From: Methanobacteriota archaeon
GTDB taxonomy: Archaea; Hydrothermarchaeota; Hydrothermarchaeia; Hydrothermarchaeales; BMS3B
Assembly (NCBI GenBank): GCA_013152685.1
Contig: JAADFX010000130.1
Location: 13,913 to 62,453 of the forward strand
Reading direction: 5' to 3'
Length of the DNA stretch: 48,541 nt
Shown here: positions 6,536-25,065 of the stretch, in pieces
Layout of the letters: each line of letters opens with the position of its first letter
How positions within the stretch are numbered: the stretch's first letter is position 1
Program-made: the position numbers and the translations under genes
Notes under the pieces: model-generated
Told to the model about the DNA's origin: nothing
Database searches by the model: none
Seen by the model: the letters and a program-made list of their open reading frames with translations, nothing else

Positions 6536-6566
6536 GGGCGTATATTCCCCCCGGCAGTATTTATAT

Positions 6567-6585
6567 TTTTCGGATTTTCAGAAAA
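6567..6585. promoter_or_regulatory. Dyad TTTTC-N9-GAAAA (T-N11-A-like) in the LysR/cytochrome divergent intergenic region
   Basis: TTTTCGGATTTTCAGAAAA, read directly. It lies between the LysR start (6535) and the cytochrome start (6661). The TATA-like ATTTATATA and the GGAGGTGG ribosome-binding site follow downstream. Confidence 0.25.
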
Positions 6586-6660
6586 ATTGGGCGTTTAATT
6601 CGTATTTTACAAAAGATTTATATACCTCCCGGCGGCAATTTCTCTTCGGAGGTGGTAAAC

Positions 6661-10583: not shown

Positions 10584-11774
10584 CTATGGCAGCACTCCGG
10601 CACGCCTAATTATCCCCAGCATCTCCAGGCTGAAGGCCGAAGCCGAGAGCAGGAGCAGAAGGCCGCCCACCATGGAGACGGCGCTCTGGGACAGGTACAT
10701 CCCCAGGGCGAGCAGCACAACACCCGCATTGTAGGCGTAGAAAATCCAGCGAGAGCGCTCCGCGGAGAAGAGCTCCTTGAAGGAGGAGGGCGCCCTCTCC
10801 CGCTCCCTGGGCAGGATCCGCGCCCAAGCAAGCGTCGGGATCACGTGGTACAGCCCCCCGATTACCGTCTGGCCGACAAAGCCCAGGGCGGCCAGGTGGG
10901 CGTGGACTGAGGAGAGCCCCGCCTCAGGAAAGGCTGCCTGTACCAGGCCCAGGAGGAGAACCAGCAGCAGGTAGCCCAGGGCAGCCAGAAAGAACCTGGA
11001 CTCCACGGGCTCTGGCTTGAAGCTCATCCTGGTGGGCGCCGTGTAGCTCTTTACCATGTCGTAGGTGAAGAGGGCGGCTGCTGAGAGGAGGACCGCGCCG
11101 GAGAGGAGGAGAAGCGCCTCAGAGAGCCCGAAGCCGAGCACCATCCCCGCCGCCGAGATGAGGGTGAGGTAGAACACGTAGTCCACCCAGCGCCGGTTGT
11201 ATATGTCCTTGACCACCAGCATGGGGAGCATCCAGGACATGGCGCCGAAGATTATCAGGGTCACCCCGCCCACCAGGGAGAGGTGCACATGGGAAGGGCG
11301 GTAGCCGTAGAGGGCGGGGTTCAGGAGGATCAAAAACCCAAGCGTCGCCCCGAGGCTAAGAAGGACGCTGGCTGCCGAGTAGAACTTGAAGGCATAGTTT
11401 TCCCCCCTGCGCTCCGCGATGGTCGCCAGGATGTTGTAGGTGAAGAGGTAGAAGCACACCAGCAGGAGCAGTGCCCCAGCCGCCGCCACCAGGCGGTGGT
11501 GGGGGTAGCTCAGCGAAAACACCACCAGGCCGGAGTTGAAAAGCCAGAAACTCGCCGAGGCGGCGCGCTTGCTGTGGAGCTCAGCGCCGGTGAGGGTGGG
11601 AACCTGCTGGTACATGGTGGCAATTATAACGCCGCAGACGAACCCCACCAGGGCGAGGTGCACGTGCACAGGCGTGGGAACCGAGAGGCCGGCCAATCCG
11701 GCTAACCCGAGGAGGAGCGCCACAACAAAATACACCAGCGCCGCTGCCAGAAACCGCAGTATTACGGCCGACAT
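10584..11774 (-). CDS. Polytopic (about 12 TM) membrane protein with thrice-repeated H-x-H-L...P-x-L motif; function unknown, possibly haem/metal-binding
   Basis: The 396-aa ORF carries repeats PVHVHLALVGFVCGVIIATMYQQVPTL, PSHVHLSLVGGVTLIIFGAMSWMLPML and SVHAHLAALGFVGQTVIGGLYHVIPTL about 125-135 aa apart. It is co-oriented 200 nt downstream of the HAO-like gene. The CDS is confident; the function is not. Confidence 0.6.
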   Translation of the reverse strand: MSAVILRFLAAALVYFVVALLLGLAGLAGLSVPTPVHVHLALVGFVCGVIIATMYQQVPTLTGAELHSKRAASASFWLFNSGLVVFSLSYPHHRLVAAAGALLLLVCFYLFTYNILATIAERRGENYAFKFYSAASVLLSLGATLGFLILLNPALYGYRPSHVHLSLVGGVTLIIFGAMSWMLPMLVVKDIYNRRWVDYVFYLTLISAAGMVLGFGLSEALLLLSGAVLLSAAALFTYDMVKSYTAPTRMSFKPEPVESRFFLAALGYLLLVLLLGLVQAAFPEAGLSSVHAHLAALGFVGQTVIGGLYHVIPTLAWARILPRERERAPSSFKELFSAERSRWIFYAYNAGVVLLALGMYLSQSAVSMVGGLLLLLSASAFSLEMLGIIRRAGVLP

Positions 11775-11778
11775 AACC

Positions 11779-11916
11779 CTAACCGTGAATCAGCATCGGC
11801 AGGCAGCGGGTGCAGATGTAGTGCTTATCCTGCCGGTGGTAGTACTTTATGAGGGGAACCTCATCCTCACTCCGCTGGCAGTTTTCACACTTCTTCATGC
11901 TTATGAAGATAGCCAT
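11779..11916 (-). CDS. Small zinc-ribbon protein (45 aa; 39 aa from the second ATG), not in the ORF track
   Basis: Reverse translation gives MAIFISMKKCENCQRSEDEVPLIKYYHRQDKHYICTRCLPMLIHG* (CxxC-x24-CxxC). The stop lies 4 nt before the start of the downstream membrane-protein gene. Confidence 0.4.
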   Translation of the reverse strand: MAIFISMKKCENCQRSEDEVPLIKYYHRQDKHYICTRCLPMLIHG

Positions 11917-11969: not shown

Positions 11970-13460
11970 TCAGGGCTTCCTCCTTCTCCTGAGCAGCAGC
12001 GCATACCCTGCCACCGGCAGCAGCGCAAGGGCAGCCACTGACGTGGGACCGCACACGCCCTTCTGCTTCTCCAGCTTGGCAACGCGCTCCTCGAGCTCCT
12101 TCTTCTCCCGCTCCATCTCGAGCCACTCTTCCATCATGTTGAGCTTGTCCATCAGCGCATCCACTGCACCGTTCCAGTGGGTCCAGTCGGGCCCCATCAT
12201 GCTGGCGCCCATCCTCCACCTTCTGCCGTCGTGGTGCCAGATGTAGTAGTACATGATCTCCGGAATCTCGTCTATCGGGTTGGACTTGTCTATGAGTCCC
12301 TCCTCGTAGGCGGCGTTGAGGAGCTGCTCCGTGTACTCGTACACCCTGTTGTAGTCCTCCACCACCTTGTCGAAGCTCTCGAAGTAGCCGTCAACCCAGT
12401 CGCTGGCGTGGCACACCCTGCACACCTTCTTCATCTCTGCCCTGCCCCGCTTTGCCTGCTCCAAATCGGGCTTCTGCTCTCCCAGGGGCACCTTGCTGGC
12501 GTCGTCCCACTGGGGCGTCGACTTCTTGGGCTGAAGCTCCCAGTAGAGCCTGGCTCCAACGTCGTGGGTGCTCTCAACCACTCCGCCAAAGCCGGACATG
12601 TGGCAGGTGGCGCAGGTGGGTGCCGCTATGTCCTCGGGACCCCACTGACCAGGGGGCACGTCCCAGTTCCAGTCTTCGCCGCTGCTCGCGTAGATGTTGC
12701 CGTGCTTGCTCTCCTCGTAGATCTCTATCTGCGGATGGTCAGGGCCGAGATGGCACTGGCCGCAGGTCTCGGGCTTCCTCGCTTCGGCTATGCTGAACCT
12801 GTGGCGAGTGTGGCAGGCGGAGCAGGTTCCCATGCTGCCGTCGGGGTTGATCCTGCCTATGCCATTGTTGGGCCAGCCGTCCACCAGATTGCCGTTCTTT
12901 GATATCACGTAGCTTCCGTGGCACTCCAGGCAGCCCAGCACCTGGTTCTCCTGGTGGTAGTTCTCGTCATCCAGGAGGCCGATGCGCTTCAGGGCACCGC
13001 TGTCCGGGAACAGCGGCGTGAGCTGCCCCCTTATGAAGTCCCTGGGGTTGTTCTCAATGGCGGTCTCCAGCTTCAGCGGGTCCTTGCCCTGCTTCACCAT
13101 CTCCCTGTACCAGGGCTTCAGCGGCCCTATGAAGGCTGCCCAGGCGTGCTTGCTCCTTGAAAACTCCGCAACCTGCTTTGGATGACAGCTCTCGCAGTAG
13201 CGCGGTGATACCACTGCCGTGACCCTGTAGCCCATGTGCTCAAAGCCGGAGGGGTCGTCATCCTTGGCGAGGTGGCAAACATAACACTTCACTCCCACCT
13301 TGCTGTGCTTACTCTCCTCCCACTGCTTCACTATCCCTGGGGTTACGGTGTCGTGACAGCTCAGACAGGGCGCCCCTGGCTCTCTGAATTCCTGTGCGTT
13401 AGCTGTACTGAGCAACATCGCTGCAGCTATCGCAAAAATTAAGAGATGCTTTAACCTCAT
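11970..13460 (-). CDS. hao: HAO-family (hydroxylamine oxidoreductase-like) octahaem c-type cytochrome with CGP-CTERM-like anchor
   Basis: Signal peptide MRLKHLLIFAIAAAMLLSTANA. Eight CxxCH sites are present: CLSCH, CYVCH, CESCH, CLECH, CSACH, CGQCH, CATCH and CRVCH. HAO/HDH-like blocks include VKQWEESKHSKVGVKCYVCH and YIWHHDGRRWRMGASMMGPDWTHWNG. The C-terminus has a coiled coil followed by KGVCGPTSVAALALLPVAGYALLLRRRRKP. Confidence 0.85.
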   Translation of the reverse strand: MRLKHLLIFAIAAAMLLSTANAQEFREPGAPCLSCHDTVTPGIVKQWEESKHSKVGVKCYVCHLAKDDDPSGFEHMGYRVTAVVSPRYCESCHPKQVAEFSRSKHAWAAFIGPLKPWYREMVKQGKDPLKLETAIENNPRDFIRGQLTPLFPDSGALKRIGLLDDENYHQENQVLGCLECHGSYVISKNGNLVDGWPNNGIGRINPDGSMGTCSACHTRHRFSIAEARKPETCGQCHLGPDHPQIEIYEESKHGNIYASSGEDWNWDVPPGQWGPEDIAAPTCATCHMSGFGGVVESTHDVGARLYWELQPKKSTPQWDDASKVPLGEQKPDLEQAKRGRAEMKKVCRVCHASDWVDGYFESFDKVVEDYNRVYEYTEQLLNAAYEEGLIDKSNPIDEIPEIMYYYIWHHDGRRWRMGASMMGPDWTHWNGAVDALMDKLNMMEEWLEMEREKKELEERVAKLEKQKGVCGPTSVAALALLPVAGYALLLRRRRKP

Positions 13461-13503
13461 ATTCTCACCCAGTTAACAATCTCCCACTCATATATTAAAA
13501 AGG

Positions 13504-13544
13504 TTTTTTTAAAAAGTGATTTAAATAAAGATTGTAGTGTTAAA
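13504..13544 (-). promoter_or_regulatory. hao upstream composite element TTTAACACTA-N19-TTTTTAAAAAAA (gene orientation)
   Basis: Read directly. The plus strand is TTTTTTTAAAAA-GTGATTTAAATAAAGATTG-TAGTGTTAAA. N19 contains the TATA-like TATTTAAAT. The proximal end lies 43 nt from the hao ATG. The same outer blocks occur with the same spacing upstream of napA. Confidence 0.55.
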
Positions 13545-13551
13545 ATTTAGT

Positions 13552-14652
13552 TTAGGTTGATAGGCGCACCCTGTGCCTCAATTCGGGAAGCGGTGACGAG
13601 GCGGCGTACACCGTACCGGCGCAACCCTCGAGCTCCTCCTCCCTTTTAGCCGTGAGCACGCGGGGCTTTAATTCCTCATCCCTGCATGTGAGGACAACTT
13701 CATCCACAACCCCTGAATTTAAAGAAAATTTAAGCAGCGCCGTAACTGCACCGCCGTCCTGCCCTCCGCCACGGGTTGCCCTGGCAGCCAGGATGCGCCT
13801 GTACCTGCCCAGGTGCTCCCTCCGTAGCTCCCCCAGCTCCAGCTGCTCCTCCAGCGCCCTCAGAGGCAGCGCTGTTCTGGTGCAGGCAGCGTAGCACAGG
13901 CTGCAGTCCTGGGGGCACCTCCCCCTCAGCCTGGGCATGCCGTTCCTCATCTCCAGCTCCGAACATGCGGCGCTGCACGCACCGCACGCGTCGCACAGAC
14001 CGGAGACCACGATATCCCTCCACAGCTCCCGGAAGCCCCTGCCCTCGGTCCTGCTCAGCGCCTCCTCCAGCGAGCCCAGATCTCTGGTGGCGTGGTGGGG
14101 CACCTCATCCCCCTGCTCCACCCTGCTCTGTATCCTCCTGAGGCTCCTCTCAAACTTGGCGCGGGCGACCCGCTGGAGCTCCTCCACGCCCGCCTCGCCC
14201 ACCTCCATCAGCTCCAGAAGGCCCGCCTCCTCAGCACCATGCAGCACCTCCTCGCCCCGGGGGGTGCGCACAATCAGGGTGGTCCACCCCTCCGGGGAGC
14301 CGGTGCTACCTGCGCTAATGTCCGCCAGCTCTGAGGTGAAATCCAGGCACATCCTGCACGCCATCTTCACGTACTTCCTCATCTCCCCCAGGGGAAACTC
14401 CAGCTCCATGCCCCGGGCTGAAACCCTCACCCGGTCCCCGGAAATTCTCATCCGGGCCACCTCCTCTGGCGCCACGCCCCGCGCCTCCAGGAACCCTGCC
14501 ATGCAGGGGTAGCTCCAGTTGCCCATGCAGAAGAGGCCCACCACCAGCTCCACCCGCTCCACCAGCCTCCTCCCCAGCAGCCTGCCCAGCGCCTGCAGCT
14601 TTCGCAGCCCCTGCACCTGACACGGCGTCCCCACGAAGCCCAGCGCTCTCAC
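13552..14652 (-). CDS. FrhB/FdhB-family (F420-reducing hydrogenase beta-like) flavo-FeS protein, circularly permuted, with internal 2x[4Fe-4S] segment
   Basis: The N-terminus starts in the FrhB C-domain (GTPCQVQGLRKL, LFCMGNW, CRMCLDFTSELADISAGSTGSPEGWTTLIVRT). Next come CDACGACSAAC and CPQDCSLCYAAC. The FrhB N-domain (GGGQDGGAVTALL...AGTVYAASSP) comes last. The ATGA overlap with napD indicates translational coupling. Confidence 0.75.
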   Translation of the reverse strand: MRALGFVGTPCQVQGLRKLQALGRLLGRRLVERVELVVGLFCMGNWSYPCMAGFLEARGVAPEEVARMRISGDRVRVSARGMELEFPLGEMRKYVKMACRMCLDFTSELADISAGSTGSPEGWTTLIVRTPRGEEVLHGAEEAGLLELMEVGEAGVEELQRVARAKFERSLRRIQSRVEQGDEVPHHATRDLGSLEEALSRTEGRGFRELWRDIVVSGLCDACGACSAACSELEMRNGMPRLRGRCPQDCSLCYAACTRTALPLRALEEQLELGELRREHLGRYRRILAARATRGGGQDGGAVTALLKFSLNSGVVDEVVLTCRDEELKPRVLTAKREEELEGCAGTVYAASSPLPELRHRVRLST

Positions 14653-14891
14653 TCCACCTCATCCTCCACGTTCAGGTACACCAGCTGGAAGTCCACCACG
14701 TCCTCCCACTTCTCTATCTCCTCCGAGAGCTTCTTGAGCTCCTTTGTGCTTCTCCCCTCCATCACCACTGCAATTCCCCGGGTGCCCCTCCCCTTAACCT
14801 CGACTCCCGGGAGGTTCCTGAGGTTCCTCTCCACCTCGTCCTCCCTCCCGGGCACCGGCACAATTACCGCTCCAGATATGGGCAAATCCAT
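14649..14891 (-). CDS. napD: NapD-like Tat-proofreading chaperone
   Basis: 80 aa from the ATG at 14891, which overlaps the napH TGA within GGAGGTGATGG. The sequence ISGAVIVPVPGREDEVERNLRNLPGVEVKG...GIAVVMEGRSTKELKKLSEEIEKWEDVVDFQLVY matches the NapD ferredoxin-like pattern. The longer track ORF overlaps napH. Confidence 0.72.
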   Translation of the reverse strand: MDLPISGAVIVPVPGREDEVERNLRNLPGVEVKGRGTRGIAVVMEGRSTKELKKLSEEIEKWEDVVDFQLVYLNVEDEVE

Positions 14892-15736
14892 CACCTCCTT
14901 ACCGCATAGTACAGGGCGCCCGTTGGGCAGGCGTCCCTGCACAGTCCACAATTATCACAGGTTCTATCATTAAAATCCTTATCTATACCGAGCTCCACAG
15001 GGCGCAGACCATAGGGGCAGGCGATGTTGCACTCACCGCAGAAGATGCAGCGCTCCATCCTCTTGGAGATTCTCACCACCCTCTTCGCCCCCAGCAGCGA
15101 CAGGAAGCCTCCCGCCGGGCACAGGGAGCGGCACCAGATCCGCCTGGCGGCGAGCGCCTCGAGCAGGACCACGCCCGTCAGGAGGAGAAGGCCGCCGTAG
15201 CTCGGGGCGCCGTAGGTGAGGACATAGAAGATCTCCCTTCCCAGCACGTGGGGCAGGTCGAAGGCGGACACCACCGGAGTGGCAAAAAAGAAGCTCAGGA
15301 GCAGCGCAAACCCCAGCAGGTGGTAGCGGTAGTCCGCCACCCTGAGGCTGAGCCTCACGCCGCGCGAGCTGAGGAAGCTCCCAAGCCTCTGGTTGAGCTC
15401 CAGCAGGAACCCGGCGGGGCAGATCCAGGAGCAGAAGACCCTGCCCAGGAGGAGGGTAATCGCCAGGGGCAGAAGCGCCGCCGCCAGCAGCGGCAGGTAA
15501 ACCACCTTCGCCGCCAGCATCGCCTCCAGCGCCGCGAGGGGGTGGGTAACGGTGAAGCCGTAGAAGCTGAAGCTCCAGGTGTCGCCCCACACGCGGGACA
15601 CCCTGGGCGGCGGGAGCTCCCCCATGGCTATCCGGGATGGTGCCCACTCTATCGGATTCTGGGAGTACAGGGGGACGGCGACCAGCACCGCCAGGACCAG
15701 CACCTGAAACACGCGCCTCAACCTGCGGACTTCCAT
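14891..15736 (-). CDS. napH: NapH-type membrane FeS quinol dehydrogenase subunit
   Basis: The start MEVRRLRRVFQ lies at 15736, just after the napG stop. Four TM helices are present. CxxxCP motifs are CSWICPAG and CRSLCPAGG. C-terminal ferredoxin motifs are CIFCGECNIACP and CDNCGLCRDACP. Confidence 0.85.
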   Translation of the reverse strand: MEVRRLRRVFQVLVLAVLVAVPLYSQNPIEWAPSRIAMGELPPPRVSRVWGDTWSFSFYGFTVTHPLAALEAMLAAKVVYLPLLAAALLPLAITLLLGRVFCSWICPAGFLLELNQRLGSFLSSRGVRLSLRVADYRYHLLGFALLLSFFFATPVVSAFDLPHVLGREIFYVLTYGAPSYGGLLLLTGVVLLEALAARRIWCRSLCPAGGFLSLLGAKRVVRISKRMERCIFCGECNIACPYGLRPVELGIDKDFNDRTCDNCGLCRDACPTGALYYAVRR

Positions 15737-15737
15737 G

Positions 15738-16478
15738 CTAGACCCTCTTAACCACCCGCACCGCGGGAAGCTCAACACCCGGCCCCGCCCTGCCTATCAC
15801 ATTCCTCACCATGGCGGCGTACCTCTCCTCGAAGTAGGTGAGCTTCCTCCCCGGCTCCATCGTCGCCCTGGCAATCCTCTCATTCACCGGGCAGACGTAG
15901 TTGCACATCCCGCATCCGACGCAGTGCCTCTCATTCACGTGGGGCCTTATTCCCACGGCACCCTCTATCACCTCATTCGGCGGGTAGGCGAGCATGGCGT
16001 CATCCCTGAGGGGGCAGTTGTAGTAGCACTCCCCGCAGGAGTCGTACTGCCACGCCAGGCACAGGTCGCGGTTTAGCACAGAAACGCCCATCTTCAGCTC
16101 CTCTGGAAGTGCCAGGAGGGTGTCCCTGTCGTTCCTTATCTTCCTGAGGGCGCCCGTGGGGCACGCCTCGCCGCACAGCAGATACTCGCTCAGGGGCTCG
16201 TCCCTGCCCTCACTGGTTCGCCTGAGGCAGAGGTAGCAGGGGGTCTCCACGGGGTCAATGTAGGGCGTCGCCACCTTCGCGCCCGCGCTGATATCGAAGA
16301 ACTTTATGGAGTCGTAGGGGCACGCCTCACCGCACTTTCCACACCTGATGCAGCGGGCCAGAAAATCACGCGCCGCCCCCGGGGGGCGTATTGCCGGGGC
16401 GTCGCCTTCTCCGAGCCCTATGCCAGCCAGGCCGATGAGCACCACACCCTTGAGGAAGCTCCTGCGCTTAAGCTTCAC
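15738..16478 (-). CDS. napG: NapG-type Tat-exported poly-ferredoxin
   Basis: Tat signal KRRSFLKGVVLIGLAG. The sequence contains IRPPGA...F...CIRCGKCGEACP plus three further 4Fe-4S motifs (CGEACPTGA, CGECYYNCP, CVGCGMCNYVCP). It overlaps the upstream gene by 4 nt. Confidence 0.85.
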   Translation of the reverse strand: MKLKRRSFLKGVVLIGLAGIGLGEGDAPAIRPPGAARDFLARCIRCGKCGEACPYDSIKFFDISAGAKVATPYIDPVETPCYLCLRRTSEGRDEPLSEYLLCGEACPTGALRKIRNDRDTLLALPEELKMGVSVLNRDLCLAWQYDSCGECYYNCPLRDDAMLAYPPNEVIEGAVGIRPHVNERHCVGCGMCNYVCPVNERIARATMEPGRKLTYFEERYAAMVRNVIGRAGPGVELPAVRVVKRV

Positions 16479-16906
16479 CAGCCACCCTCCCTCTCAATCT
16501 CAATAATCGCAACCTCGTAGTGGCGCCCCTTTATCTGGTAGGGCACCACCACCCTGCCCCGCACCACCACCTCGGAGCCCTGCATCGGCATTGTTCCCCG
16601 GGTGATGACCCATATCTCACCCGTGCCGTCGTTCAGCAGATAGGGCTGCTCATCCACAAACTCAAAGGCAAGCCCCGGGAGTGCGGTGCCCCGCAGCACC
16701 ACCTCCATGCCCTCGTAGGCCTCCGGGTTGTCCAGAATATCGGCGACCCTGACACCGCCGCCCGCATCACCCGCCGGCGCCGGCTCTGGTTGTGGCGTCG
16801 CTACGGGCGCCTCCACCGCCTCCCCCACAGCCTCAACCACCGCTTCCTCCTTCTCAACGCAGCCGGCAAGAACCAGAAGTATCAGCAGCACTGCATAGAG
16901 CCGCAT
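16475..16906 (-). CDS. Predicted lipoprotein with A/P/E-rich linker and OB-fold-like C-terminal domain (unknown function) in the napB position
   Basis: Lipobox LLVLAGC, a low-complexity linker and then a beta-rich domain (MEVVLRGTA...GEIWVITRG...VVVRGRVVVPYQIKGRHYEVAIIEIE). There is no CxxCH, so it is not NapB. The stop overlaps the napG start. Confidence 0.55.
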   Translation of the reverse strand: MRLYAVLLILLVLAGCVEKEEAVVEAVGEAVEAPVATPQPEPAPAGDAGGGVRVADILDNPEAYEGMEVVLRGTALPGLAFEFVDEQPYLLNDGTGEIWVITRGTMPMQGSEVVVRGRVVVPYQIKGRHYEVAIIEIEREGGW

Positions 16907-16993
16907 GCAACCACCGCCGTTTTTAATTTAAGTATGTGATGCCAATAATTTATAAAGATAACTTTAAAATAAAATTCAGTCCCCCTATTTTTT

Positions 16994-17003
16994 AAAAGAA
17001 AAG
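16994..17003 (-). terminator. T-rich tract (CTTTTCTTTT) after the napA stop
   Basis: The minus strand after TAG reads GCCACCTCCCAACTTTTCTTTTAAAAAA. The 109-nt AT-rich spacer before the next gene also holds TATA-like CTTTATAAA, so napA and the downstream genes may be separate or attenuated transcription units. Confidence 0.3.
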
Positions 17004-17015
17004 TTGGGAGGTGGC

Positions 17016-19493
17016 CTACGCCTTGACCACCTTTATCTTGCACACCTTGTAGTCAGGCTCCGCCGCCTTTGACCAGCTCTCGGGCACGTCTATGGTGAGG
17101 TCGTTGATCAGCTTGGTCTCATCGAACCAGGGCACGAAGACCATGCCCGGCTGAGCGCGCTCTGTAACCCAGGCGGGGAGGACGATGCTGCCGCGCGGTG
17201 ATATCAGCTTTATCTTCTCACCGCTCTTGACCCCCAGCTTCCTGGCATCGCTCGGGTGTATCTCCACGTAGGCGGCCGGGTTCAGCTCACGCAGCAGGCG
17301 CACGCGCATGGTCATTGTTCCGGTGTGCCAGTGCTCTATAACCCTGCCGGTGTTCAGCACGAAGGGATAGCTGGCGTCCGGCATCTCGTAGTCCAGCTTC
17401 GCCGCGAGAGCGCGGATTACCGCCTTGTCCTTGGTGTTCTTGAGCTTGTGGCCTCCGTAGTAGTTTATCGGCCCTGGATAGCCGTGCTCCTCCATGTGCT
17501 GGTCGTACAGCGTGACGTAGCCCGTGGCGTACCTCTTCTTGTCCCTTCCGAACACCCTTATCGCGTACTCCCTGGAGATGTAGCGCTTGTTGCTTCCGCG
17601 GTTGTCAAACTCGGTGCTCGGGCAGGGCCACTGGACGCCGCCCGCGTGGGCCTTGAGCTTCTCGTAGGTGGCGCCGTAGAGGTCAACATCCTGTCCCCTG
17701 GTGAGCACCCTGTACTCGTTCCACGCGGCCTCCTCTGGCGTCATCTCGCCCTTCTTAACCCTGGGGTCGTCGTAGAAGCCCAGGCCGTAGACCTCTATGG
17801 TGTCCAGCACCTTGAGCGGGTCCTGCCTGTCCCTGATGGCATACTTAACCTTCCTTCCCAGCTTCTGGGCTATCCTCCTGGCCACCTCATTTATCTGCCA
17901 GAAGTCGGGCTTTGCCTCTCCCGGCGGGTCCACCAGCTTGTTTATAAACTGGCTCCTCCTGTCTGTCTGCCCCATGACGCCCTCCTTCTCCACCCACATG
18001 GCGCTGGGCAGTATGACCGTCGCCACCTCAGTGGTCTTGTTGGGGTAGATGTCGCTCACCACAGTGAAGGCCTTCATCATGGCCTCCGCATAGCGGTCGC
18101 AGTTGGGCAGGCTCTGCGCCGGGTTGGTGGTGTTTATCCATATCGCCTTTATCTCGCCCTTCTCCAGGCGCATGAACATGTTAACCGCCGGGCCCGTGGG
18201 CTTCTTGGGCATCTGCTCAACGGGCACGCCCCAGACCTCTGCCACCTCCTGCCTGTGCTTGGGATTCGCCACCGCCCTGTGCCCCGGCAGGATGTGGGTG
18301 AGTCCGCCCTGCTCGCGAGTGCCGCCGCAGGCGTTGGGCTGCCCCGTGAGGCTGAGGGAGTCACAGCCGGGCTTGCCTATCTTGCCTGTGAGCAGGTGCA
18401 GGTTGTGAACCTGGCAGTTGAGCTCCACGCCCTGGGTGCGCTGGTTCAAACCCATGGTCCACATGCTGAGGGCAGTGTAGCCGCGCCGCCCAAACCACCG
18501 CGCCGCCAGGCGTATGTCCTCAGCGGGCACCCCGGTTATGTCCTCCACCTTCTCCGGGGTGTAGTCCTTGAGGAACTCCCTGAAGCCGTCCAGGTCCATC
18601 TCCTCGCCGGCCGGACCAAGGCCCACCCTGAAGGTGCAGTACTTGAGGTGCTCGTAGTCCACCATGTCCTCCTCTATTATCACATACGCCATGGCGTTCA
18701 GCAGGTACATGTCGGTACCCGGCTTGAACTTCAGGTGGAGGTCCGCATACCTCGCTGTCGGAGTTGTGCGCGGGTCGGCCACTATAACCCTCACCCTGTC
18801 CGGATAGGCGCTCTTCCTGTCTATCACCCTGCGGAAGAGCATCGGGTGCTGCTCCGCCATGTTTGAGCCTATGATGAAGATGGTGTCCGCCAGGTCTATG
18901 TCGTCGTAGCTTCCCGCAGGCTCATCTGCGCCGAAGGTGTTGAGGTAGCCTCCAACCGCAGAAGCCATGCACAGCCTGGGGTTGCCCTCCACGTTGGCGG
19001 TGCCAATAAGCCCCTTGAAGAGCTTGTTGGCGGCGTAGGCTTCCTGGGTTGTGTTCTGTCCAGAGCCGTACCACGCGACGCTGTCGGGACCGTACTCCTT
19101 GATGTACTTGGCAAAGGTGTCGGCAATCAGCTCCAGCGCCTCGTCCCAGCTGACCTCCTTGTAGCTTCCATCCGGCTGACGCACCATGGGCTTGGTCAGC
19201 CTCTCCTTCCCGCCGCCACCGTACATTATGTGGGGCAGCGAGTACCCCTTCATGCAGAGTCTGCCGAAGTTTATCGGGGAATCCGCATCGCCCTTTACTG
19301 CCACCACCTTACCGTCACGCACGCCCACAAGTACAGTGCAGCCGGTGCCGCAGAACCTGCACTGGGCGCGCCCGAAGGTTATTCCCCCATCTCCCGGCGC
19401 CGCCATCGCGGGGGCACTCATGCCGGCTGCAAGCATCGCTGCAGTGGCGGCTGAAGCCTTTATGAACTCACGTCTGCTCATGCTTATTCCCAT
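17016..19493 (-). CDS. napA: Periplasmic-type nitrate reductase catalytic subunit NapA (Mo-bisPGD, Tat-exported)
   Basis: GGAGGTGA lies 5 nt before ATG 19493. Tat signal SRREFIKASAATAAMLAAGMSAPAMA. The N-terminal [4Fe-4S] motif is CRFCGTGCTVLV...C. The Mo-ligand region NPRLCMASAVGGYLNTFG resembles NapA. The napG/H/D context supports the call. Confidence 0.9.
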   Translation of the reverse strand: MGISMSRREFIKASAATAAMLAAGMSAPAMAAPGDGGITFGRAQCRFCGTGCTVLVGVRDGKVVAVKGDADSPINFGRLCMKGYSLPHIMYGGGGKERLTKPMVRQPDGSYKEVSWDEALELIADTFAKYIKEYGPDSVAWYGSGQNTTQEAYAANKLFKGLIGTANVEGNPRLCMASAVGGYLNTFGADEPAGSYDDIDLADTIFIIGSNMAEQHPMLFRRVIDRKSAYPDRVRVIVADPRTTPTARYADLHLKFKPGTDMYLLNAMAYVIIEEDMVDYEHLKYCTFRVGLGPAGEEMDLDGFREFLKDYTPEKVEDITGVPAEDIRLAARWFGRRGYTALSMWTMGLNQRTQGVELNCQVHNLHLLTGKIGKPGCDSLSLTGQPNACGGTREQGGLTHILPGHRAVANPKHRQEVAEVWGVPVEQMPKKPTGPAVNMFMRLEKGEIKAIWINTTNPAQSLPNCDRYAEAMMKAFTVVSDIYPNKTTEVATVILPSAMWVEKEGVMGQTDRRSQFINKLVDPPGEAKPDFWQINEVARRIAQKLGRKVKYAIRDRQDPLKVLDTIEVYGLGFYDDPRVKKGEMTPEEAAWNEYRVLTRGQDVDLYGATYEKLKAHAGGVQWPCPSTEFDNRGSNKRYISREYAIRVFGRDKKRYATGYVTLYDQHMEEHGYPGPINYYGGHKLKNTKDKAVIRALAAKLDYEMPDASYPFVLNTGRVIEHWHTGTMTMRVRLLRELNPAAYVEIHPSDARKLGVKSGEKIKLISPRGSIVLPAWVTERAQPGMVFVPWFDETKLINDLTIDVPESWSKAAEPDYKVCKIKVVKA

Positions 19494-19546
19494 ACTTTCA
19501 CCTCCGCCTCTGTATAATATTCATGGATTTTTAGGTTAATAAAACC

Positions 19547-19587
19547 TTTTTTTAAAAATTTTATTTATATCCCTCCATAGTGTTAAA
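19547..19587 (-). promoter_or_regulatory. napA upstream composite element TTTAACACTA-N19-TTTTTAAAAAAA (gene orientation)
   Basis: The plus strand is TTTTTTTAAAAA-TTTTATTTATATCCCTCCA-TAGTGTTAAA. N19 holds the TATA-like ATATAAATA. The proximal end lies 53 nt from the napA ATG. The outer blocks and the spacing are identical to the hao element. Confidence 0.55.
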
Positions 19588-19658: not shown

Positions 19659-20318
19659 TTAAATGTTACCTTCCAGCGACAGCATGGTCATGAAGGCGCG
19701 CTTCCCCGTGTCGGAGATGTAGTAGTGGCGGTTTTCATCCTGGGCTATCAGCCCCGCCTGCTTTAGCACCCTCAGGTGAAAGCCGAGCTTTGCGGGCTCA
19801 TCGATGTCCAGGTAGTTCATTATGTCGGTAAAGCGCGCCTTCCCCTTTGCGTGGAGGTACTCTATTATCCTGCGGCGTATCGGGTTTGAGAGGGACTTGA
19901 GCACGTCCTTCCCGGTCTCCCTGACGCCCGCCTTCTCCCGCACCGCCTCCTCTATCCTGGTCTCCTCCAGCAGGCGGAGGATCTTGTTCCTGATCTCCTC
20001 CACCTTGAAGGGCTTGAGGATGTAGTCGCTGGCTCCCATCTTCATCGCCCTCACGGCGCTGTCCACTGTGCCAAAGGCGGTGATAATTATGACCTTTGTG
20101 AGAGGGGAGTACTTCTTGACGTTCCTCAGCACCTCCATCCCGTCGGCTCCCGGCATCACCAGGTCGGTGATGACCAGGTCAAACTTCTGCTTTTTTATCA
20201 TGTTTATGGCCTTGACCCCGTCCTCTGCGATTTTGGGGGAGTAGCCCTTCTTCTCCAGCAGAATCTTCAATCCCTCTCTGAGCTTCGGGTCATCCTCCAC
20301 TATCAGTATCTCCTGCAT
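19659..20318 (-). CDS. Response regulator: REC domain plus ArsR-type winged-helix output
   Basis: The start [13 protein letters not shown] lies at 20318. The phospho-acceptor context is DLVITDLVMPGADG. The C-terminal LSNPIRRRIIEYLHAKGKARFTDIM...KLGFHLRVLKQAGLI is an ArsR/SmtB-like wHTH. Confidence 0.82.
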   Translation of the reverse strand: MQEILIVEDDPKLREGLKILLEKKGYSPKIAEDGVKAINMIKKQKFDLVITDLVMPGADGMEVLRNVKKYSPLTKVIIITAFGTVDSAVRAMKMGASDYILKPFKVEEIRNKILRLLEETRIEEAVREKAGVRETGKDVLKSLSNPIRRRIIEYLHAKGKARFTDIMNYLDIDEPAKLGFHLRVLKQAGLIAQDENRHYYISDTGKRAFMTMLSLEGNI

Positions 20319-21753
20319 CTGACTCACCCGGCAGATATATTCTGAAGGTGGTGCCCCTGCCCACCTCGCTCTCAACCTCTATCTCTCCTCCGTGCTTCTC
20401 AATTATGCTGTAGGTGATGTAGAGGCCGAGCCCCGTGCCCTTGCCCACCTCCTTCGTGGTGAAGAAGGGGTCAAAAATCTTCCCGAGGTGCTCCTCGGGG
20501 ATTCCCACACCGGTGTCCCTGATTTCCACCACCACCCTGCCATCACTCCTGTAGGTGCGTATCGTCAGCTTGCCGCCTTCCTTCATCGCGTCAATTGCAT
20601 TGGTGGCTATGTTTATGAAGGCATCCAGCAGCTTTGAGGAGTCTCCCTTTATCTCCGGAAGCCTCTCGTCCAGGTCCAGCTCAAGCTTTATGTTTTTGTA
20701 CTGTAATTGGGGTTTGAGGATATTTAACATTTTCTTGATTATTTCGTTAACCTGGGCAACCTCATTTTTGAACTCCCGCTGCCTTGAGAAGTCGAGCAGC
20801 CCCTGAACCACCTTAGATGCGAGGGACGCCTCCTCCTCTATAATCTCCAGCACCTTCCTGGTCTCCTCATCCTTCACCTCCTCCCTGTGGATCTGGGAGT
20901 AGAGAATTATGTTCGCCAGGGGGTTGTTTATCTGATGAGCTATCCCGGCGGCCAGCTTGCCCACCGTGGCCATCTTCTCACTCTGTATCACCTGGGCCTC
21001 CTTGTTCTTGAGCTCCTCAACCATGCTGTTAAAAACCCTTGCGAGCTCTCCGAGCTCGTCTTCCTTGTCCACATCTACCCTGGCGGAGTAGTCCCGCTTT
21101 GAGAGTTTTATGGCAGCCTCCTTCACCTTGTTGAGGGGGGTGATCACCACGAAGCGCATTATCCCGAGTATTGCGAGCATTATTCCCAGGGAGAGGAGGA
21201 AGCCGTAGAAGATGAGCTGCCTCCTCGTCCTCTCCAGGGACGCCATTACCTCGCTCACGGGGATTTCCACCACAAGAGCGCCGCGCAGGTCGCCCTCCCG
21301 GTACCCCTGGTCCACGTGGCACTTCAGGCAGGGCTTCTCTATGTACAGGGGGACGGCGTACTCGTAGAAATCCGAGCTTACGGCGTACCTCTCCCCCTCA
21401 CCCCCCTGCATAAACTCCATCAGCACCCTCCTCTCAAACTCGTCGGCGGGGTAGTTATCCGGGTCCCTGGGCTTGAAGGTCACCAGCTTTATCTTGTAGT
21501 CGTACATCTCATTGGAAAGCTCGGAGAGCTCGTAGGTGAGCTCTGCCGGCACAGGCATCACCCTCTCCCTGTTTTCCGCCGCCCACAGCCTCACCAGCAG
21601 GATCTGGTCTGTAACACTCTTTGCCTGCTGCCGCAGCTGCTCCATGATGTTCCTCTCGTGCACCTCGCTCATGTAGTAGAAAATTCCCTGAACTGAGAGG
21701 AACACTATTATGCCCACGGCAAGCATCACCTTTGTGCCAACGCTCGCCTTCAT
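20290..21753 (-). CDS. Sensor histidine kinase with extracytoplasmic haem-c (CxxCH, DUF3365/Tll0287-like) sensor, HAMP, HisKA and HATPase domains
   Basis: TM1 is followed by an exported domain of about 150 aa ending [31 protein letters not shown] (CLKCH at 21316-21330). TM2 and HAMP follow. The H-box is [12 protein letters not shown]. The N, G1 and G2 boxes are [16 protein letters not shown] and GKGTGLGL. Confidence 0.85.
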
Positions 21754-22745
21754 TCGCCCACCTCGGGGGGTACCACGCGCACTGGAAGGCGCTCCGGGAG
21801 ATGGCGCAGATCCAGGACCACTATTCCGCCGTCGTAGTCTGCAACATACGCACTGCCCTCCGCCACCGCTATGCCGTAGGCGTTTCCGGGGGTGTCGTAC
21901 TCCGCCACCGGCTCAAGCCTGCCGTCCTCGTGGATCCTGAGCAGCGCCACGCCGCTGTTCGCGAGGGTTACCAGCAGGTAGTCCCTGTAGCTGGCTAGCC
22001 GCAGGGCAAAGCCCGGAAGCTGGAGGTTCTGCTGGTGAACAAGCCTGCCGTCCGGAGATATCCTGTACACATCCACCCCGGCATCTGAGCTAGCCACGTA
22101 CGCGTGGGAGCCCCTGACCAGGACGTCGTGGGCAACACTGCTCGTGGGAACAAAGCCCAGGAACTCCAGGGAGCCGTTCTTCCGGAGCCTGGCCACGTAC
22201 AGCCGCATTGTGAAGTCGGCCAGGTACAGCGTCCTGTCCCTTACGCTCACGCCCTTTGGGTAGCTGTAGTTGCCGGGCTTGTAGAACCTCTGGCTGAGGG
22301 TGGCAAGGTCAAGAACCACCAGGCCAGAGGCCACACAGGCGAGGAAGGCACTGTTGCCGGAGATAACAATCTTCTGGGCGGTGTGGTTCAGCACCACCTC
22401 CGCCAGGAGCTGCGGCTGGGCGGGGGTGCTCACGTCCAGCAGGTAAAGCTTCCCCAGGGTGTCGCTGACGTAGAGCGTCCTCCCGGACACCGCCAGGGTC
22501 TGGGCCTCGCCGGGGGTTCTGAAGCCCCCTATCCTGCGCAGGCTTCCCGCCCCTATTGAGAAGATGTCCAGCCCCCAGGGTGAGACCGCATATAAGTACT
22601 CGTCGTACACCAGAACATCGTAGTAGTAGTGGGGCTTTTGAGGACTGATGTCCGGCTGATATCCCTGATTCTCGCCGGACACGCATCCTGCAAGCACCAG
22701 CAGCAGTGGAATCGCCACCCAGTAGAGGGTCCTATGTCCACACAT
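21750..22745 (-). CDS. LVIVD-repeat beta-propeller lipoprotein
   Basis: Lipobox LLLVLAGC. The repeated units are G.a..v.v.g..aYva....Gl.v.D.s (YLLDVS, LVVLDLA, GVDVYRI, GIVVLDL). The ATGA overlap with the kinase gene couples the two. A start at 22772 is also possible. Confidence 0.7.
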   Translation of the reverse strand: MCGHRTLYWVAIPLLLVLAGCVSGENQGYQPDISPQKPHYYYDVLVYDEYLYAVSPWGLDIFSIGAGSLRRIGGFRTPGEAQTLAVSGRTLYVSDTLGKLYLLDVSTPAQPQLLAEVVLNHTAQKIVISGNSAFLACVASGLVVLDLATLSQRFYKPGNYSYPKGVSVRDRTLYLADFTMRLYVARLRKNGSLEFLGFVPTSSVAHDVLVRGSHAYVASSDAGVDVYRISPDGRLVHQQNLQLPGFALRLASYRDYLLVTLANSGVALLRIHEDGRLEPVAEYDTPGNAYGIAVAEGSAYVADYDGGIVVLDLRHLPERLPVRVVPPEVGE

Positions 22746-22893
22746 CTTCTCCTCTAAGGCCACAGCGCACATCTGGTAAATTTTACTTAAATTTTTACTT
22801 ATTTATCTTTTAATATAAAATTCCCTTTATATAAAATTTCTTTTAAAATAAAGTTTTAAGGACTGGAGGTTCAAAAGATACTACGGTGATGGT

Positions 22894-23034
22894 ATGCTTG
22901 TGGGAAACACCGAAATCCTGCTGGTGATTGCGCTGGTGGTCCTCCTCTTCGGAGCCGGGAAGATTCCGGAGCTCGCCCGCAGCCTCGGGAGGGCCAGGGT
23001 TGAGTTCAGACGCGGCATGGAAGAGGAGAAGTAG
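22894..23034 (+). CDS. tatA: Twin-arginine translocase subunit TatA/E (46 aa, not in the ORF track)
   Basis: Translation gives MLVGNTEILLVIALVVLLFGAGKIPELARSLGRARVEFRRGMEEEK*. This is the TatA TM helix, the F-G hinge and an amphipathic helix. GGTGAT lies just upstream. Confidence 0.78.
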   Translation: MLVGNTEILLVIALVVLLFGAGKIPELARSLGRARVEFRRGMEEEK

Positions 23035-23715: not shown

Positions 23716-23841
23716 GCACAGCCCCTCCACCCGCTGCCCAGCGGAGTATTATAAAAATTTTTTTAAAACAAGCTTTTTATATCCGCATATTTAAAAAATG
23801 TATAGATTTAAATAAAAATGTTTATTGTCCGGGTGGCGTCG

Positions 23842-25065
23842 ATGGAGAAGCTTGTGACTCTCAAGAGGGCGCGCGAGATTATCAACTCCCTCAGGGAGAG
23901 GTGCTACTTCAACCGCACCACTGAGCTAGTGGAGGTTGACACCTCCCTGCTCGGCAGGGAGCTCGCCAGGGATGTGCCCGCCCCGGAGGACTCCCCTCCC
24001 CACGACATCGCCAGCTACGACGGGTATGCCATGCGCAGCGACGACGCCAAGCGTTATCCGCTGCGCATTGTGGGAAGCGTGTATGCGGGCGACGCCTACG
24101 AAACCCTGCCCGAGCTGGGCGAGGGTGAGGCTGTGTACGTCGCCACGGGTGCCTTTCTGCCCCCGGGCGCCGACTGCGTGCTGCGCTTGGAGGATGCCCG
24201 CGTTGAGGGCGACCTGCTCTACGGCATAGACATCCAGAGGGGCACAAAGGTCGTGCCCCGTGGGAGCAACTACCGGAAGGGTGAGGTGGTGCTTAGGGCA
24301 AAAACAAGGATCCGCGCCCAGGAGTTCGGGATACTCCACGGCCTCGGCGTTGACAGGGTGGAGGTCTTCCGCAGGCCCAGGGTTGCGGTATTCGCCACAG
24401 GAAACGAAATCGCCCGCGGGATAATCAGGGACGTAAACTCCTTCGTGGTGCTCGCGCTGCTGGAGCAGTGGGGGTGTGAGGCGGAGTACCTGGGAGCCAT
24501 CGAGGACGACTACGACGCAACTGTGAGCGCCATCTCCCGGGCCGCGGAGGAGTACGACTGCGTTGTCACCAGCGGCGGTGTCAGCGTCGGGCGGCGGGAC
24601 TATGTGCTCCGCGCCATCGAGGAGCTGGGCGACGTGCTGCTCTACAAGGTGAAAACCCGCCCCGGCAAGCCGGTGGCGGTTGGAGTGGTGGGCGAAAAGC
24701 CGGTGTTTGCGCTGCCCGGCAAGCCGACGGGCGCCCTGGTGGCGGCACTTCTCCACCTCCGCAGGTACTTCCTGGGCAGGGGCGAGGAGCCCTTCGTCTT
24801 CGCGAGAATTACCGAGGACATCCTCCTCTCAACGAAGGACACGGACGCCCCCGACATCGCAAACCTGGTGTTTGTGCACCTGGAAAACGGCTCTGCCCGG
24901 CCCATAGGCTTCCCGGGGAGTGAGATGCCGCTGATGAAGAGGGGCGAGCGGTACAACGTCTCCGCCATCGCCTCCAACCTGCGCAGCGCCCTGGTGGACG
25001 GGTATGCGATTGTGGAGAGGGACACCCGGAGGGGTGAGCAGGTAAAGGTTCACCTGTTTACGTGA
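23842..25065 (+). CDS. moeA: Molybdopterin molybdotransferase MoeA
   Basis: The ATG at 23842 follows GGTGG. The sequence shows the MoeA pattern (SYDGYAMRSDD, GEAVYVATGAFLPPGADCVL, VAVFATGNEI, VVTSGGVSVG..D, KPGKP). Confidence 0.88.
   Translation: MEKLVTLKRAREIINSLRERCYFNRTTELVEVDTSLLGRELARDVPAPEDSPPHDIASYDGYAMRSDDAKRYPLRIVGSVYAGDAYETLPELGEGEAVYVATGAFLPPGADCVLRLEDARVEGDLLYGIDIQRGTKVVPRGSNYRKGEVVLRAKTRIRAQEFGILHGLGVDRVEVFRRPRVAVFATGNEIARGIIRDVNSFVVLALLEQWGCEAEYLGAIEDDYDATVSAISRAAEEYDCVVTSGGVSVGRRDYVLRAIEELGDVLLYKVKTRPGKPVAVGVVGEKPVFALPGKPTGALVAALLHLRRYFLGRGEEPFVFARITEDILLSTKDTDAPDIANLVFVHLENGSARPIGFPGSEMPLMKRGERYNVSAIASNLRSALVDGYAIVERDTRRGEQVKVHLFT

Follow-up and report, generated by a model that had tools for sequence, protein, structure and literature searches.

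An archaeal nitrate reductase locus without NapB, NapC or NapM, and its octahaem cytochrome as a candidate nitrite reductase and NapA partner

The DNA analysed here, a 48,541-nucleotide (nt) stretch of contig JAADFX010000130.1 in the Hydrothermarchaeota assembly GCA_013152685.1 (hereafter the window, 48.5 kb), carries genes for a periplasmic nitrate reductase (Nap), with napA, a lipoprotein gene, napG, napH and napD following one another on the minus strand. An initial annotation, made from the sequence alone, had reported these five genes between 14649 and 19493 as an operon lacking napB, napC and napF, and the open reading frames (ORFs) of the window place all five at exactly those coordinates. 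It had also described the genes after napA as linked by overlaps of 1-4 nt, which holds for the lipoprotein gene and napG (4 nt) and for napH and napD (1 nt), but not for napA and the lipoprotein gene, which are separated by a 109-nt AT-rich spacer, nor for napG and napH, which are 1 nt apart. The unit as drawn was too short, as it omitted a translationally coupled FrhB-like gene (13552..14652, minus strand) and an octahaem cytochrome c gene (11970..13460, minus strand). The absence of napB, napC and napF extends from the operon to the whole window. No CxxCH motif occurs in NapA, the lipoprotein, NapG, NapH or NapD, no napB-type gene (dihaem, about 150 amino acids [aa]) lies beside napA, and no CxxCH-bearing ORF lies within the operon. 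Only two ORFs in the window have at least two CxxCH motifs, the octahaem gene and a nine-haem gene at 6469-8541, and no small four-haem gene of the NapC/NrfH or NapM type was found in it. The NCBIfam NapF model matched NapG alone, weakly (36.6 bits), and no other ORF in the window was a candidate for NapF.

[quoted passage not shown] The protein matched the Pfam families TAT_signal, Molybdop_Fe4S4, Molybdopterin and Molydop_binding. The Tat signal, CRFCGTGC cluster motif and CMASA region named in the initial annotation are all borne out: the twin-arginine motif is SRREFIK (PF10518, 24.1 bits against a cut-off of 22.7), CRFCGTGC begins at residue 45 and CMASA at residue 175, and the cluster cysteines C45-x2-C48-x3-C52 and the Mo ligand C175 align residue for residue with NapA of Desulfovibrio desulfuricans. 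In a HMMER alignment to 2JIO, the equivalents of D. desulfuricans Met141, Met308 and Arg354, which we take to be substrate-pocket residues, are identical in the window protein. NapA was the best NCBIfam model (673 bits, compared with 506 for the formate dehydrogenase [Fdh] alpha subunit and 414 for NasC), with a score under the NapA equivalog cut-off of 904. The best PDB match was the monomeric D. desulfuricans enzyme (2NAP/2JIO, 650 bits), ahead of heterodimeric NapAs (493-517 bits) and the best Fdh (377 bits). Assignment of the catalytic subunit to Nas or Fdh enzymes, which the initial annotation had named as a result that would overturn its reading, thus finds no support in either set of scores.

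In a neighbour-joining tree of NapA sequences, midpoint-rooted and built without a Nas or Fdh outgroup, these proteins formed one long-branched clade, in which an archaeal subclade was sister to a Nitrospirota/Thermodesulfobacteriota subclade. The clade adjoins lineages whose napA is flanked by a four-haem gene, and its members are 40-49% identical to other NapAs. Genome and metagenome scans yielded 24 loci of this clade (individual loci are cited below by L numbers), with NapAs 60-94% identical to that of the window. The window NapA lacks the insert of about 28 residues that heterodimeric NapAs have near residue 291, and it has a 21-residue insertion, YAIRVFGRDKKRYATGYVTLY, at residues 643-663 (about 17505-17567, minus strand), which is present in all NapAs of the clade and absent from about 70 distant ones, making it a candidate docking surface for clade-specific partners. 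The long branch, the low identity to other NapAs, the score under the NapA cut-off and the 21-residue insertion are points in favour of a NapA-like enzyme that reduces some substrate other than nitrate. We regard that as highly improbable: the Mo-ligating cysteine and the three pocket residues are all conserved, NapD, NapG and NapH accompany the enzyme, the linked octahaem protein is of the nitrite-reductase type, and a major facilitator superfamily (MFS) transporter gene is present in L009.

Between napA and napG lies the gene of a 143-aa lipoprotein (16475..16906, minus strand; lipobox LLVLAGC) with no match in Pfam or NCBIfam. Its relatives among 5.8 billion proteins form 22 clusters, all unnamed. 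The lipobox cysteine is conserved, and after it come a linker of low complexity and an 85-residue domain that is highly conserved, though not at any Cys or His. An AlphaFold2 (AF2) model (pLDDT 82) matched oligonucleotide/oligosaccharide-binding (OB) domains of aminoacyl-tRNA synthetases in Foldseek, and a weak match to DUF5818 was also seen. That the lipoprotein is a degenerate NapB was considered and ruled out by the confidently modelled OB-fold beta-barrel and the lack of conserved Cys and His. The gene is present in all 14 clade loci that have napG and in none of the 10 that do not, and it occupies the position held in sister lineages by a two- or four-haem cytochrome gene (napA-cytochrome-napG-napH). 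The most plausible role for this protein, which carries no redox cofactor, is to anchor NapG and NapH or to support them structurally.

The next three genes encode recognizable Nap accessory proteins. NapG (15738..16478, minus strand; 246 aa) is a Tat-exported ferredoxin with an RRSFLK signal and 16 cysteines forming four 4-Cys Fe-S motifs; its best NCBIfam models were NapG and MauM/NapG, the former at 109 bits against a cut-off of 269. The napH gene (14891..15736, minus strand) lies in an ORF that reaches 15778, with a likely ATG start at 15736 giving a 281-aa membrane Fe-S protein. NapH has four hydrophobic or transmembrane segments, the CX3CP motifs CSWICP and CRSLCP, and the CxxCxxCxxxCP motifs CIFCGECNIACP and CDNCGLCRDACP of a cytoplasmic 2x[4Fe-4S] domain that gives PorD-like matches; its best NCBIfam models were NapH/MauN, at 120 bits against a cut-off of 213. 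By these hallmarks NapG and NapH make up a complete quinol-dehydrogenase pair, predicted to oxidize menaquinol and pass the electrons to NapA. The last gene, napD (14649..14891, minus strand), encodes the Tat proofreading chaperone for NapA; its ORF extends to 14951, but the likely start is the ATG at 14891, preceded by AAGGAGGTG, which gives a protein of 80 aa that matches PF03927 (E 2.6e-13).

The FrhB-like gene starts with GTG in a 4-nt overlap (GTGA) with the napD stop codon. Its product matches Pfam FrhB_FdhB_C at residues 2-151 and FrhB_FdhB_N at residues 288-357 (E 5e-42 and 3e-15, respectively), and between them lie the eight cysteines of a 2x[4Fe-4S] ferredoxin domain, so that the domains run C, ferredoxin, N. 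The two halves align in swapped order to the closest solved protein, 8RIU_B, and by this alignment the non-canonical arrangement is a clean circular permutation of the expected N-then-C order. Full-length relatives form only eight clusters in the collection of 5.8 billion sequences. The AF2 model (pLDDT 80, pTM 0.83) has FrhB, Fsr and the 8RIU_B and 8RJA subunits as top Foldseek matches, and among solved proteins it is nearest to the subunits that add an F420 reductase to the CODH and Fwd complexes of Ca. Ethanoperedens. The protein has neither a signal peptide nor a transmembrane helix, indicating a cytoplasmic location for this Fe-S-rich, putative flavoprotein. The sole permuted homologue outside nap loci was found at 3584-4675 in L084 and 111-1202 in L085 (38% identity), where it is translationally coupled to the gamma and delta genes of a 2-oxoacid:ferredoxin oxidoreductase (POR).

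Two roles can be considered for this protein. It may be an add-on, predicted to bind FAD and F420 and to oxidize F420H2, that docks on the ferredoxin domain of NapH. We propose this because the gene, which is coupled to napD, is found together with napGH, because the NapH ferredoxin domain is PorD-like and the L084/L085 homologue is coupled to POR gamma and delta genes, and because its nearest solved relatives are F420-reductase modules on CODH and Fwd. The co-occurrence is strict in the loci at hand: the gene is present in all eight archaeal-type loci with napGH, in no archaeal locus without napGH, and in no bacterial-type locus. The other role, which we find doubtful, is that of a cytoplasmic factor that matures or activates apo-NapA, standing in for the missing NapF. 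A cytoplasmic, Fe-S-rich protein whose gene overlaps that of the chaperone NapD by 4 nt, in a locus without napF, would suit such a factor. However, a factor serving NapA would not be expected to be missing from archaeal loci that have napA and napD without napGH (L001, L005, L092, L099) or from all bacterial loci of the clade, and its nearest solved relatives are electron-transfer subunits.

The octahaem gene begins 91 nt past the FrhB-like gene, after an AT-rich spacer with the TATA-like sequence TTTAATATA. Its product has a signal peptide, eight CxxCH motifs, a match to PF13447, and a C-terminus made up of Cys-Gly-Pro, a transmembrane segment and an RRRR anchor. As a CGP-CTERM or MYXO-CTERM signal this C-terminus was rejected, both scores being under threshold (13.4 bits against 21 and 18.4 against 20). 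The protein belongs to the hydroxylamine oxidoreductase (HAO)/IhOCC family; its PDB relatives are IhOCC of Ignicoccus hospitalis (4QO5, E 1e-56), Kuenenia HAO (6H5L) and Nitrosomonas HAO (NeHAO, 1FGJ). The catalytic Asp-His pair, distal at the catalytic haem of NeHAO (D267/H268), is kept as GPDHP at residues 239-243, aligned with the NeHAO sequence VDH, and 31 of 32 nap-linked homologues have GPDHP unchanged. Residues 414-432, homologous to the C-terminal region of IhOCC, contain no Tyr, and the HMMER alignment of the NeHAO cross-linking Tyr467 in this region is unreliable; a search with the C-terminal fragment matched IhOCC only. In the PD[W/Y] column at residue 426, close to where the cross-link would be expected, the window protein and IhOCC have Trp, and Tyr is found in L007, L009, L010 and most distant nap-linked HAO-like proteins.

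What is known of these relatives suggests an enzyme-like protein. IhOCC has been named an octahaem nitrite reductase (PMC9250108) and is described in the literature as having no P460, the Kuenenia HAOr is a nitrite-reducing HAO without the tyrosine, and HAOs without the cross-link are treated in the literature as reductases. The window protein is accordingly a candidate enzyme-like member of the HAO family, for which nitrite or hydroxylamine reduction is predicted from its relatives.

Comparison of the clade loci shows which of these genes travel together. All 24 loci have napA and napD, and every contig that extends far enough has the octahaem gene too, sometimes upstream of napA and overlapping its start (L005, L086). 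The lipoprotein-napG-napH block is present or absent as a unit, occurring in 14 loci and missing from about 10 (L001, L005, L009, L092, L094, L097, L099, L100 and perhaps L098 among those without napGH). In L097 the only cytochrome gene after napA-napD (3215-3634) encodes a stand-alone three-haem protein that corresponds by homology to the octahaem protein's N-terminal module; it could be a naturally "pruned" form or else a remnant. NapA and NapD, together with the octahaem protein or just the three-haem module of its N-terminus, make up the constant core of the clade. No redox gene other than that of the HAO-family octahaem protein accompanies this NapA clade in every case, in archaea and bacteria alike. 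Distant NapA loci, in contrast, almost always have a small two- or four-haem cytochrome, which the clade never has. Of 72 distant genome loci, 71 have a further ORF with at least two CxxCH motifs no more than 7 kb from napA, and of 34 distant metagenome loci that could be evaluated, 32 have one of under 400 aa no more than 3 kb away. Among the clade loci, 0 of 24 have such a further multihaem ORF near napA. In particular, no small four-haem cytochrome gene of the NapC/NrfH or NapM type was found in any of the 24. A 66-aa ORF with two CxxCH motifs upstream of napA in L002 and L003 was rejected as spurious, as it lies in another frame inside a kinase gene. In the archaeal relative L086, the region downstream of the nap cluster has a second octahaem gene and, after it, a gene (13223-14632) for a 469-aa FlpD (MvhD-like) polyferredoxin, which hints at further cytoplasmic electron-input modules.

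From these data we propose that the locus encodes a Nap independent of NapB, NapC and NapM, coupled to an IhOCC-type nitrite reductase that is probably also the cytochrome partner of NapA, a reading we hold with slightly more confidence than doubt. In this scheme NapA, matured by NapD, would reduce nitrate to nitrite at the outer face of the membrane, and the octahaem protein would reduce the nitrite onward, to ammonium or to nitric oxide (NO). Through its N-terminal three-haem module the octahaem protein would also donate electrons to NapA, replacing NapB or NapM. NapGH and the lipoprotein would form an optional input cassette fed by menaquinol, with NapG supplying NapA either directly or through the octahaem protein, and in archaea the cassette may also take electrons from F420H2 via the FrhB-like protein docked on the cytoplasmic ferredoxin domain of NapH. 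We assign the donor role to the octahaem protein because the clade has lost the small cytochrome, because about 10 loci encode nothing else that could serve, and because, to our knowledge, the immediate donor in every Nap characterised so far is a c-type cytochrome, placed between NapGH or NapC and NapA. The text of Carr et al. (2019) gives the same arrangement.

The initial annotation had offered two routes for electron delivery, NapGH acting directly or a neighbouring multihaem cytochrome, and both remain live. The first is the main rival to our proposal: NapGH, held together by the lipoprotein, would reduce NapA from menaquinol without a cytochrome, and the octahaem protein would be a nitrite reductase only, with its own donor. 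Several observations fit this tentative alternative. NapG and NapH carry every hallmark of a quinol dehydrogenase, the lipoprotein gene takes the slot of the cytochrome gene of sister lineages and is gained and lost with napGH, and the octahaem protein retains its catalytic pocket. HAO-like genes, moreover, stand beside napA even where a small cytochrome exists. On the other hand, direct transfer would mean that the 9-10 clade loci without napGH encode no donor for NapA, it would depart from the cytochrome-mediated arrangement of characterised Naps, and it would not account for L097, which keeps the three-haem module alone beside napA-napD. The other three alternatives considered in this study, on the substrate of NapA, the role of the FrhB-like protein and the location of napB or napC, are less likely.

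Our preferred reading, with the octahaem protein as both donor and nitrite reductase, has to be weighed against several points that speak the other way. We know of no characterised Nap that takes electrons from an HAO-family protein, so there is no precedent. The HAO-like genes just mentioned stand beside napA in 17 distant loci already equipped with a small cytochrome, and the HAO-like protein there therefore serves primarily in the next catalytic step, not as an electron donor. The scores of NapA, NapG and NapH are all under their NCBIfam equivalog cut-offs. An archaeal-specific insertion in NapH that might serve as a docking site for the FrhB-like protein was sought in the sequences, and none was found. 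The clade loci often come from closely related metagenome-assembled genomes (MAGs), so that the counts given above are not independent, and the analysed data cover the 48.5 kb of the window, with the rest of the genome outside them. Finally, residues of the NapB interface, whose inspection had been suggested in the initial annotation, gave a divided answer. NapA residues E47 and S772 of Cereibacter are reported to be critical for NapB binding (PMC13223375); E47 aligns with P73 of the window protein and is lost, and S772 aligns with T793, a conservative change.

The last two points bear on a further alternative, that a canonical NapB and/or NapC, or a protein of the NapM or NrfH type, is encoded elsewhere in the genome and the operon only looks incomplete. 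With 48.5 kb inspected, MAGs being incomplete and T793 being conservative for a serine that contacts NapB, there is some room for this, but we consider it very unlikely. None of the 24 clade loci, archaeal or bacterial, has such a gene nearby, in contrast to almost every other NapA lineage. Neither napB nor napC is listed among the nitrogen genes tabulated for the published Hydrothermarchaeota genomes (PMC6775978), and the window NapA is nearest to the monomeric Desulfovibrio enzyme, is without the heterodimer insert of about 28 residues, and has Pro in place of E47.

Taken together as one claim, the two parts of the scheme are less secure than the first alone. That the octahaem protein is both NapA donor and nitrite reductase, and that in addition F420H2 drives periplasmic nitrate reduction across the membrane through the permuted FrhB-like protein, NapH and NapG, seems to us unlikely as a conjunction. 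If the first part were true, NapA and the octahaem protein would constitute a minimal two-enzyme unit that forms ammonium or NO from nitrate, and the octahaem protein would fill the "missing nitrite reductase" gap in Hydrothermarchaeota, in which earlier surveys found no nitrite reductase. If the FrhB-like protein feeds NapH, this would be the first link of the F420 pool to a periplasmic nitrate reductase and would provide a function for the long-unexplained cytoplasmic Fe-S domain of NapH; F420-dependent enzymes and menaquinone have both been reported for Hydrothermarchaeota. The comparison offers a sharper, testable picture of how Nap could work without NapB, NapC and NapM.

A promoter-proximal motif suggests that these genes are regulated together. 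The sequence TTTTTAAAAAAAGGTTTT lies at 19541..19558 (minus strand), 48 nt upstream of napA, and further copies lie at 13498..13515 (minus strand), 38 nt upstream of the octahaem gene, and, with one mismatch, at 23760..23777 (plus strand), 41 nt upstream of moeA. As the 18-nt motif TTTTTAAAAAAASSTTTT it has three matches in the window, with 0 expected, and it recurs at matching places in archaeal relatives, among them the site upstream of napA in L004, L002, L011 and L088, and is absent from the bacterial relatives. A degenerate copy, TTTTAAAAAATAGG, was seen in the spacer between napA and the lipoprotein gene (about 16985-17000). That napA, the octahaem gene and moeA share this motif speaks for a common regulon, with at least two promoters. 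A scan for sigma-70 promoters and intrinsic terminators, a method unsuited to an archaeon, gave counts in the window close to the shuffled expectation, and Rfam and tRNA scans of the window found two tRNAs only, far from the nap locus.

Several other genes lie on the upstream side of napA. A response regulator with an ArsR/DUF7347 winged-helix output domain (19659..20318, minus strand) lies next to the gene of a sensor histidine kinase (20290..21753, minus strand) whose Tll0287-like periplasmic domain has a single CxxCH motif (CLKCH, residue 142), making it a probable haem-c sensor; such a kinase adjoins napA in both archaeal and bacterial loci of the clade (L005, L009, L086, L097). Overlapping the kinase start by 4 nt is the gene of a lipoprotein with an LVIVD-repeat beta-propeller (21750..22772, minus strand), conserved in archaeal loci. 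Genes on this side that are divergent from napA include a 46-aa TatA-like ORF (22894..23034, plus strand; ILLVIALVVLLFGAGKIPELARSLG), which is likewise conserved in archaeal relatives, at a place where TatA is called in L002 and L088, a second regulator gene, and moeA for molybdopterin biosynthesis (23818-25065, plus strand), identified from synteny and from Pfam annotation in relatives.

On the other side, past the octahaem gene, are two further minus-strand ORFs. A 39-aa zinc-ribbon ORF of the CxxC...CxxC type (11779..11898), with a gene of the same size in L001 and L088, ends 4 nt before the gene of a 396-aa polytopic membrane protein (10584..11774) that matches Pfam COX1 (E 1e-20) and, weakly, NnrS. 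The latter has three internal HxH...G...(Y/W)..P repeats resembling helix X of haem-copper oxidases, belongs to a small family of 376 representatives, and is next to the octahaem gene in archaeal loci only; NO handling and a quinol-linked haem-b anchor are possibilities for its role. The remaining multihaem protein of the window, the 690-aa cytochrome with nine CxxCH motifs (6469-8541, plus strand), gave weak MtrC/OmcA-like and cytochrome c7 matches and is unrelated to NapB and NapC by size and motif count; it may take part in extracellular electron transfer. Its gene is divergent from that of a LysR regulator at 5642-6535.

The archaeal backbone recognized in the initial annotation is in agreement with both the NapA identities and the marker genes. 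NapA is 93% identical to that of a Hydrothermarchaeota MAG, 90% to that of Ca. Pyrohabitans jungbluthii JdFR-16 and 75% to that of Ca. Hydrothermarchaeum profundi JdFR-18, and the window encodes a diphthamide synthase, pheT_arch, an archaeal PheS, Trm14_Arch and NreA. By these markers the backbone is archaeal and close to Ca. Pyrohabitans, and a stray bacterial contig is not the source of the nap genes.

The composition of the operon, which had been presented as unusual, and the presence of Nap in an archaeon, which had been called noteworthy, are both already in the literature for this lineage. In their supplement, Carr et al. (2019, ISME J; PMC6775978) describe a Hydrothermarchaeota napA with napGHD and without napC or napM, beside a "transmembrane cytochrome c-7", and the gene table of that paper lists neither napB nor napC; Kato et al. 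(2019) repeat the Nap assignment. The designation NapAGHD has also been used for Desulfurivibrio, although a related locus, L026, has a four-haem gene upstream of napA. A 2026 review recognizes four canonical nap operon types, none of them identical to that of the window. We found no published description of the HAO/IhOCC identity of the cytochrome or of its constancy beside this NapA clade, nor of the OB-fold lipoprotein, the permuted FrhB-like gene or the shared promoter motif. The nap gene content is thus ordinary for the lineage, and the HAO identity, lipoprotein, FrhB-like gene and motif would be new annotations or hypotheses drawn from sequence comparison.

The closest known system is the "NapADGH" cluster of Carr et al. 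(2019; PMC6775978), which concerns the same lineage and genes and leads to the same conclusion. The paper calls the cytochrome "c-7" and contains no occurrence of hydroxylamine oxidoreductase, and in its available passages the lipoprotein, permuted FrhB-like gene, COX1-like gene and shared promoter motif are not described. Among solved enzymes, the monomeric NapA of D. desulfuricans (2NAP/2JIO), a short NapB-independent form, is the best relative, and the window NapA is about 70 residues longer, with insertions of its own. The Desulfovibrio-type napCMADGH and napMADGH operons have NapD, NapG and NapH in common with the window; they encode the tetrahaem NapM, and in Desulfovibrio NapC as well, whereas the window encodes neither, and its gene order, A-x-G-H-D, is different. 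The epsilonproteobacterial napAGHBFLD operons (Wolinella, Campylobacter, Nautilia) resemble the window in the order napA-napG-napH, in having napD last, and in the replacement of NapC by NapGH as membrane donor. They include NapB, NapF and NapL, which the window does not, and the window has an OB-fold lipoprotein between napA and napG.

The FrhB-like protein finds its best matches in the F420-reductase add-ons (Ca. Ethanoperedens CODH zeta, 8RIU_B; FwdI, 8RJA_E), FrhB and Fsr. These share its three building blocks, namely the FrhB N and C domains and a ferredoxin domain with 2x[4Fe-4S], and they establish that an F420 module can be attached to an Fe-S enzyme. The window protein differs from them in its permuted order (C, ferredoxin, N), in its putative partner, the membrane protein NapH, and in its putative direction, the oxidation of F420H2.

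For the octahaem protein the closest solved counterpart is IhOCC (4QO5), which is likewise archaeal, is membrane-associated, belongs to the HAO clade and is without P460. IhOCC has Asp-Val where the window protein has Asp-His, and the available literature text on IhOCC reports no link to Nap in Ignicoccus. A functional parallel is the "reverse hydroxylamine:ubiquinone reductase module" (reverse HURM), or epsilon-Hao, of Nautilia profundicola and thermophilic sulfur disproportionators, which like the window combines Nap with an octahaem protein of the HAO family. In those organisms the octahaem protein, which is without the cross-link tyrosine, has been proposed or shown to reduce nitrite, and its hao gene is unlinked to nap and paired with a tetrahaem protein of the NapC/cM552 type. 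The window clade, in contrast, has no NapC-type gene, and its octahaem gene is a constant neighbour of napA, in some loci even overlapping it.

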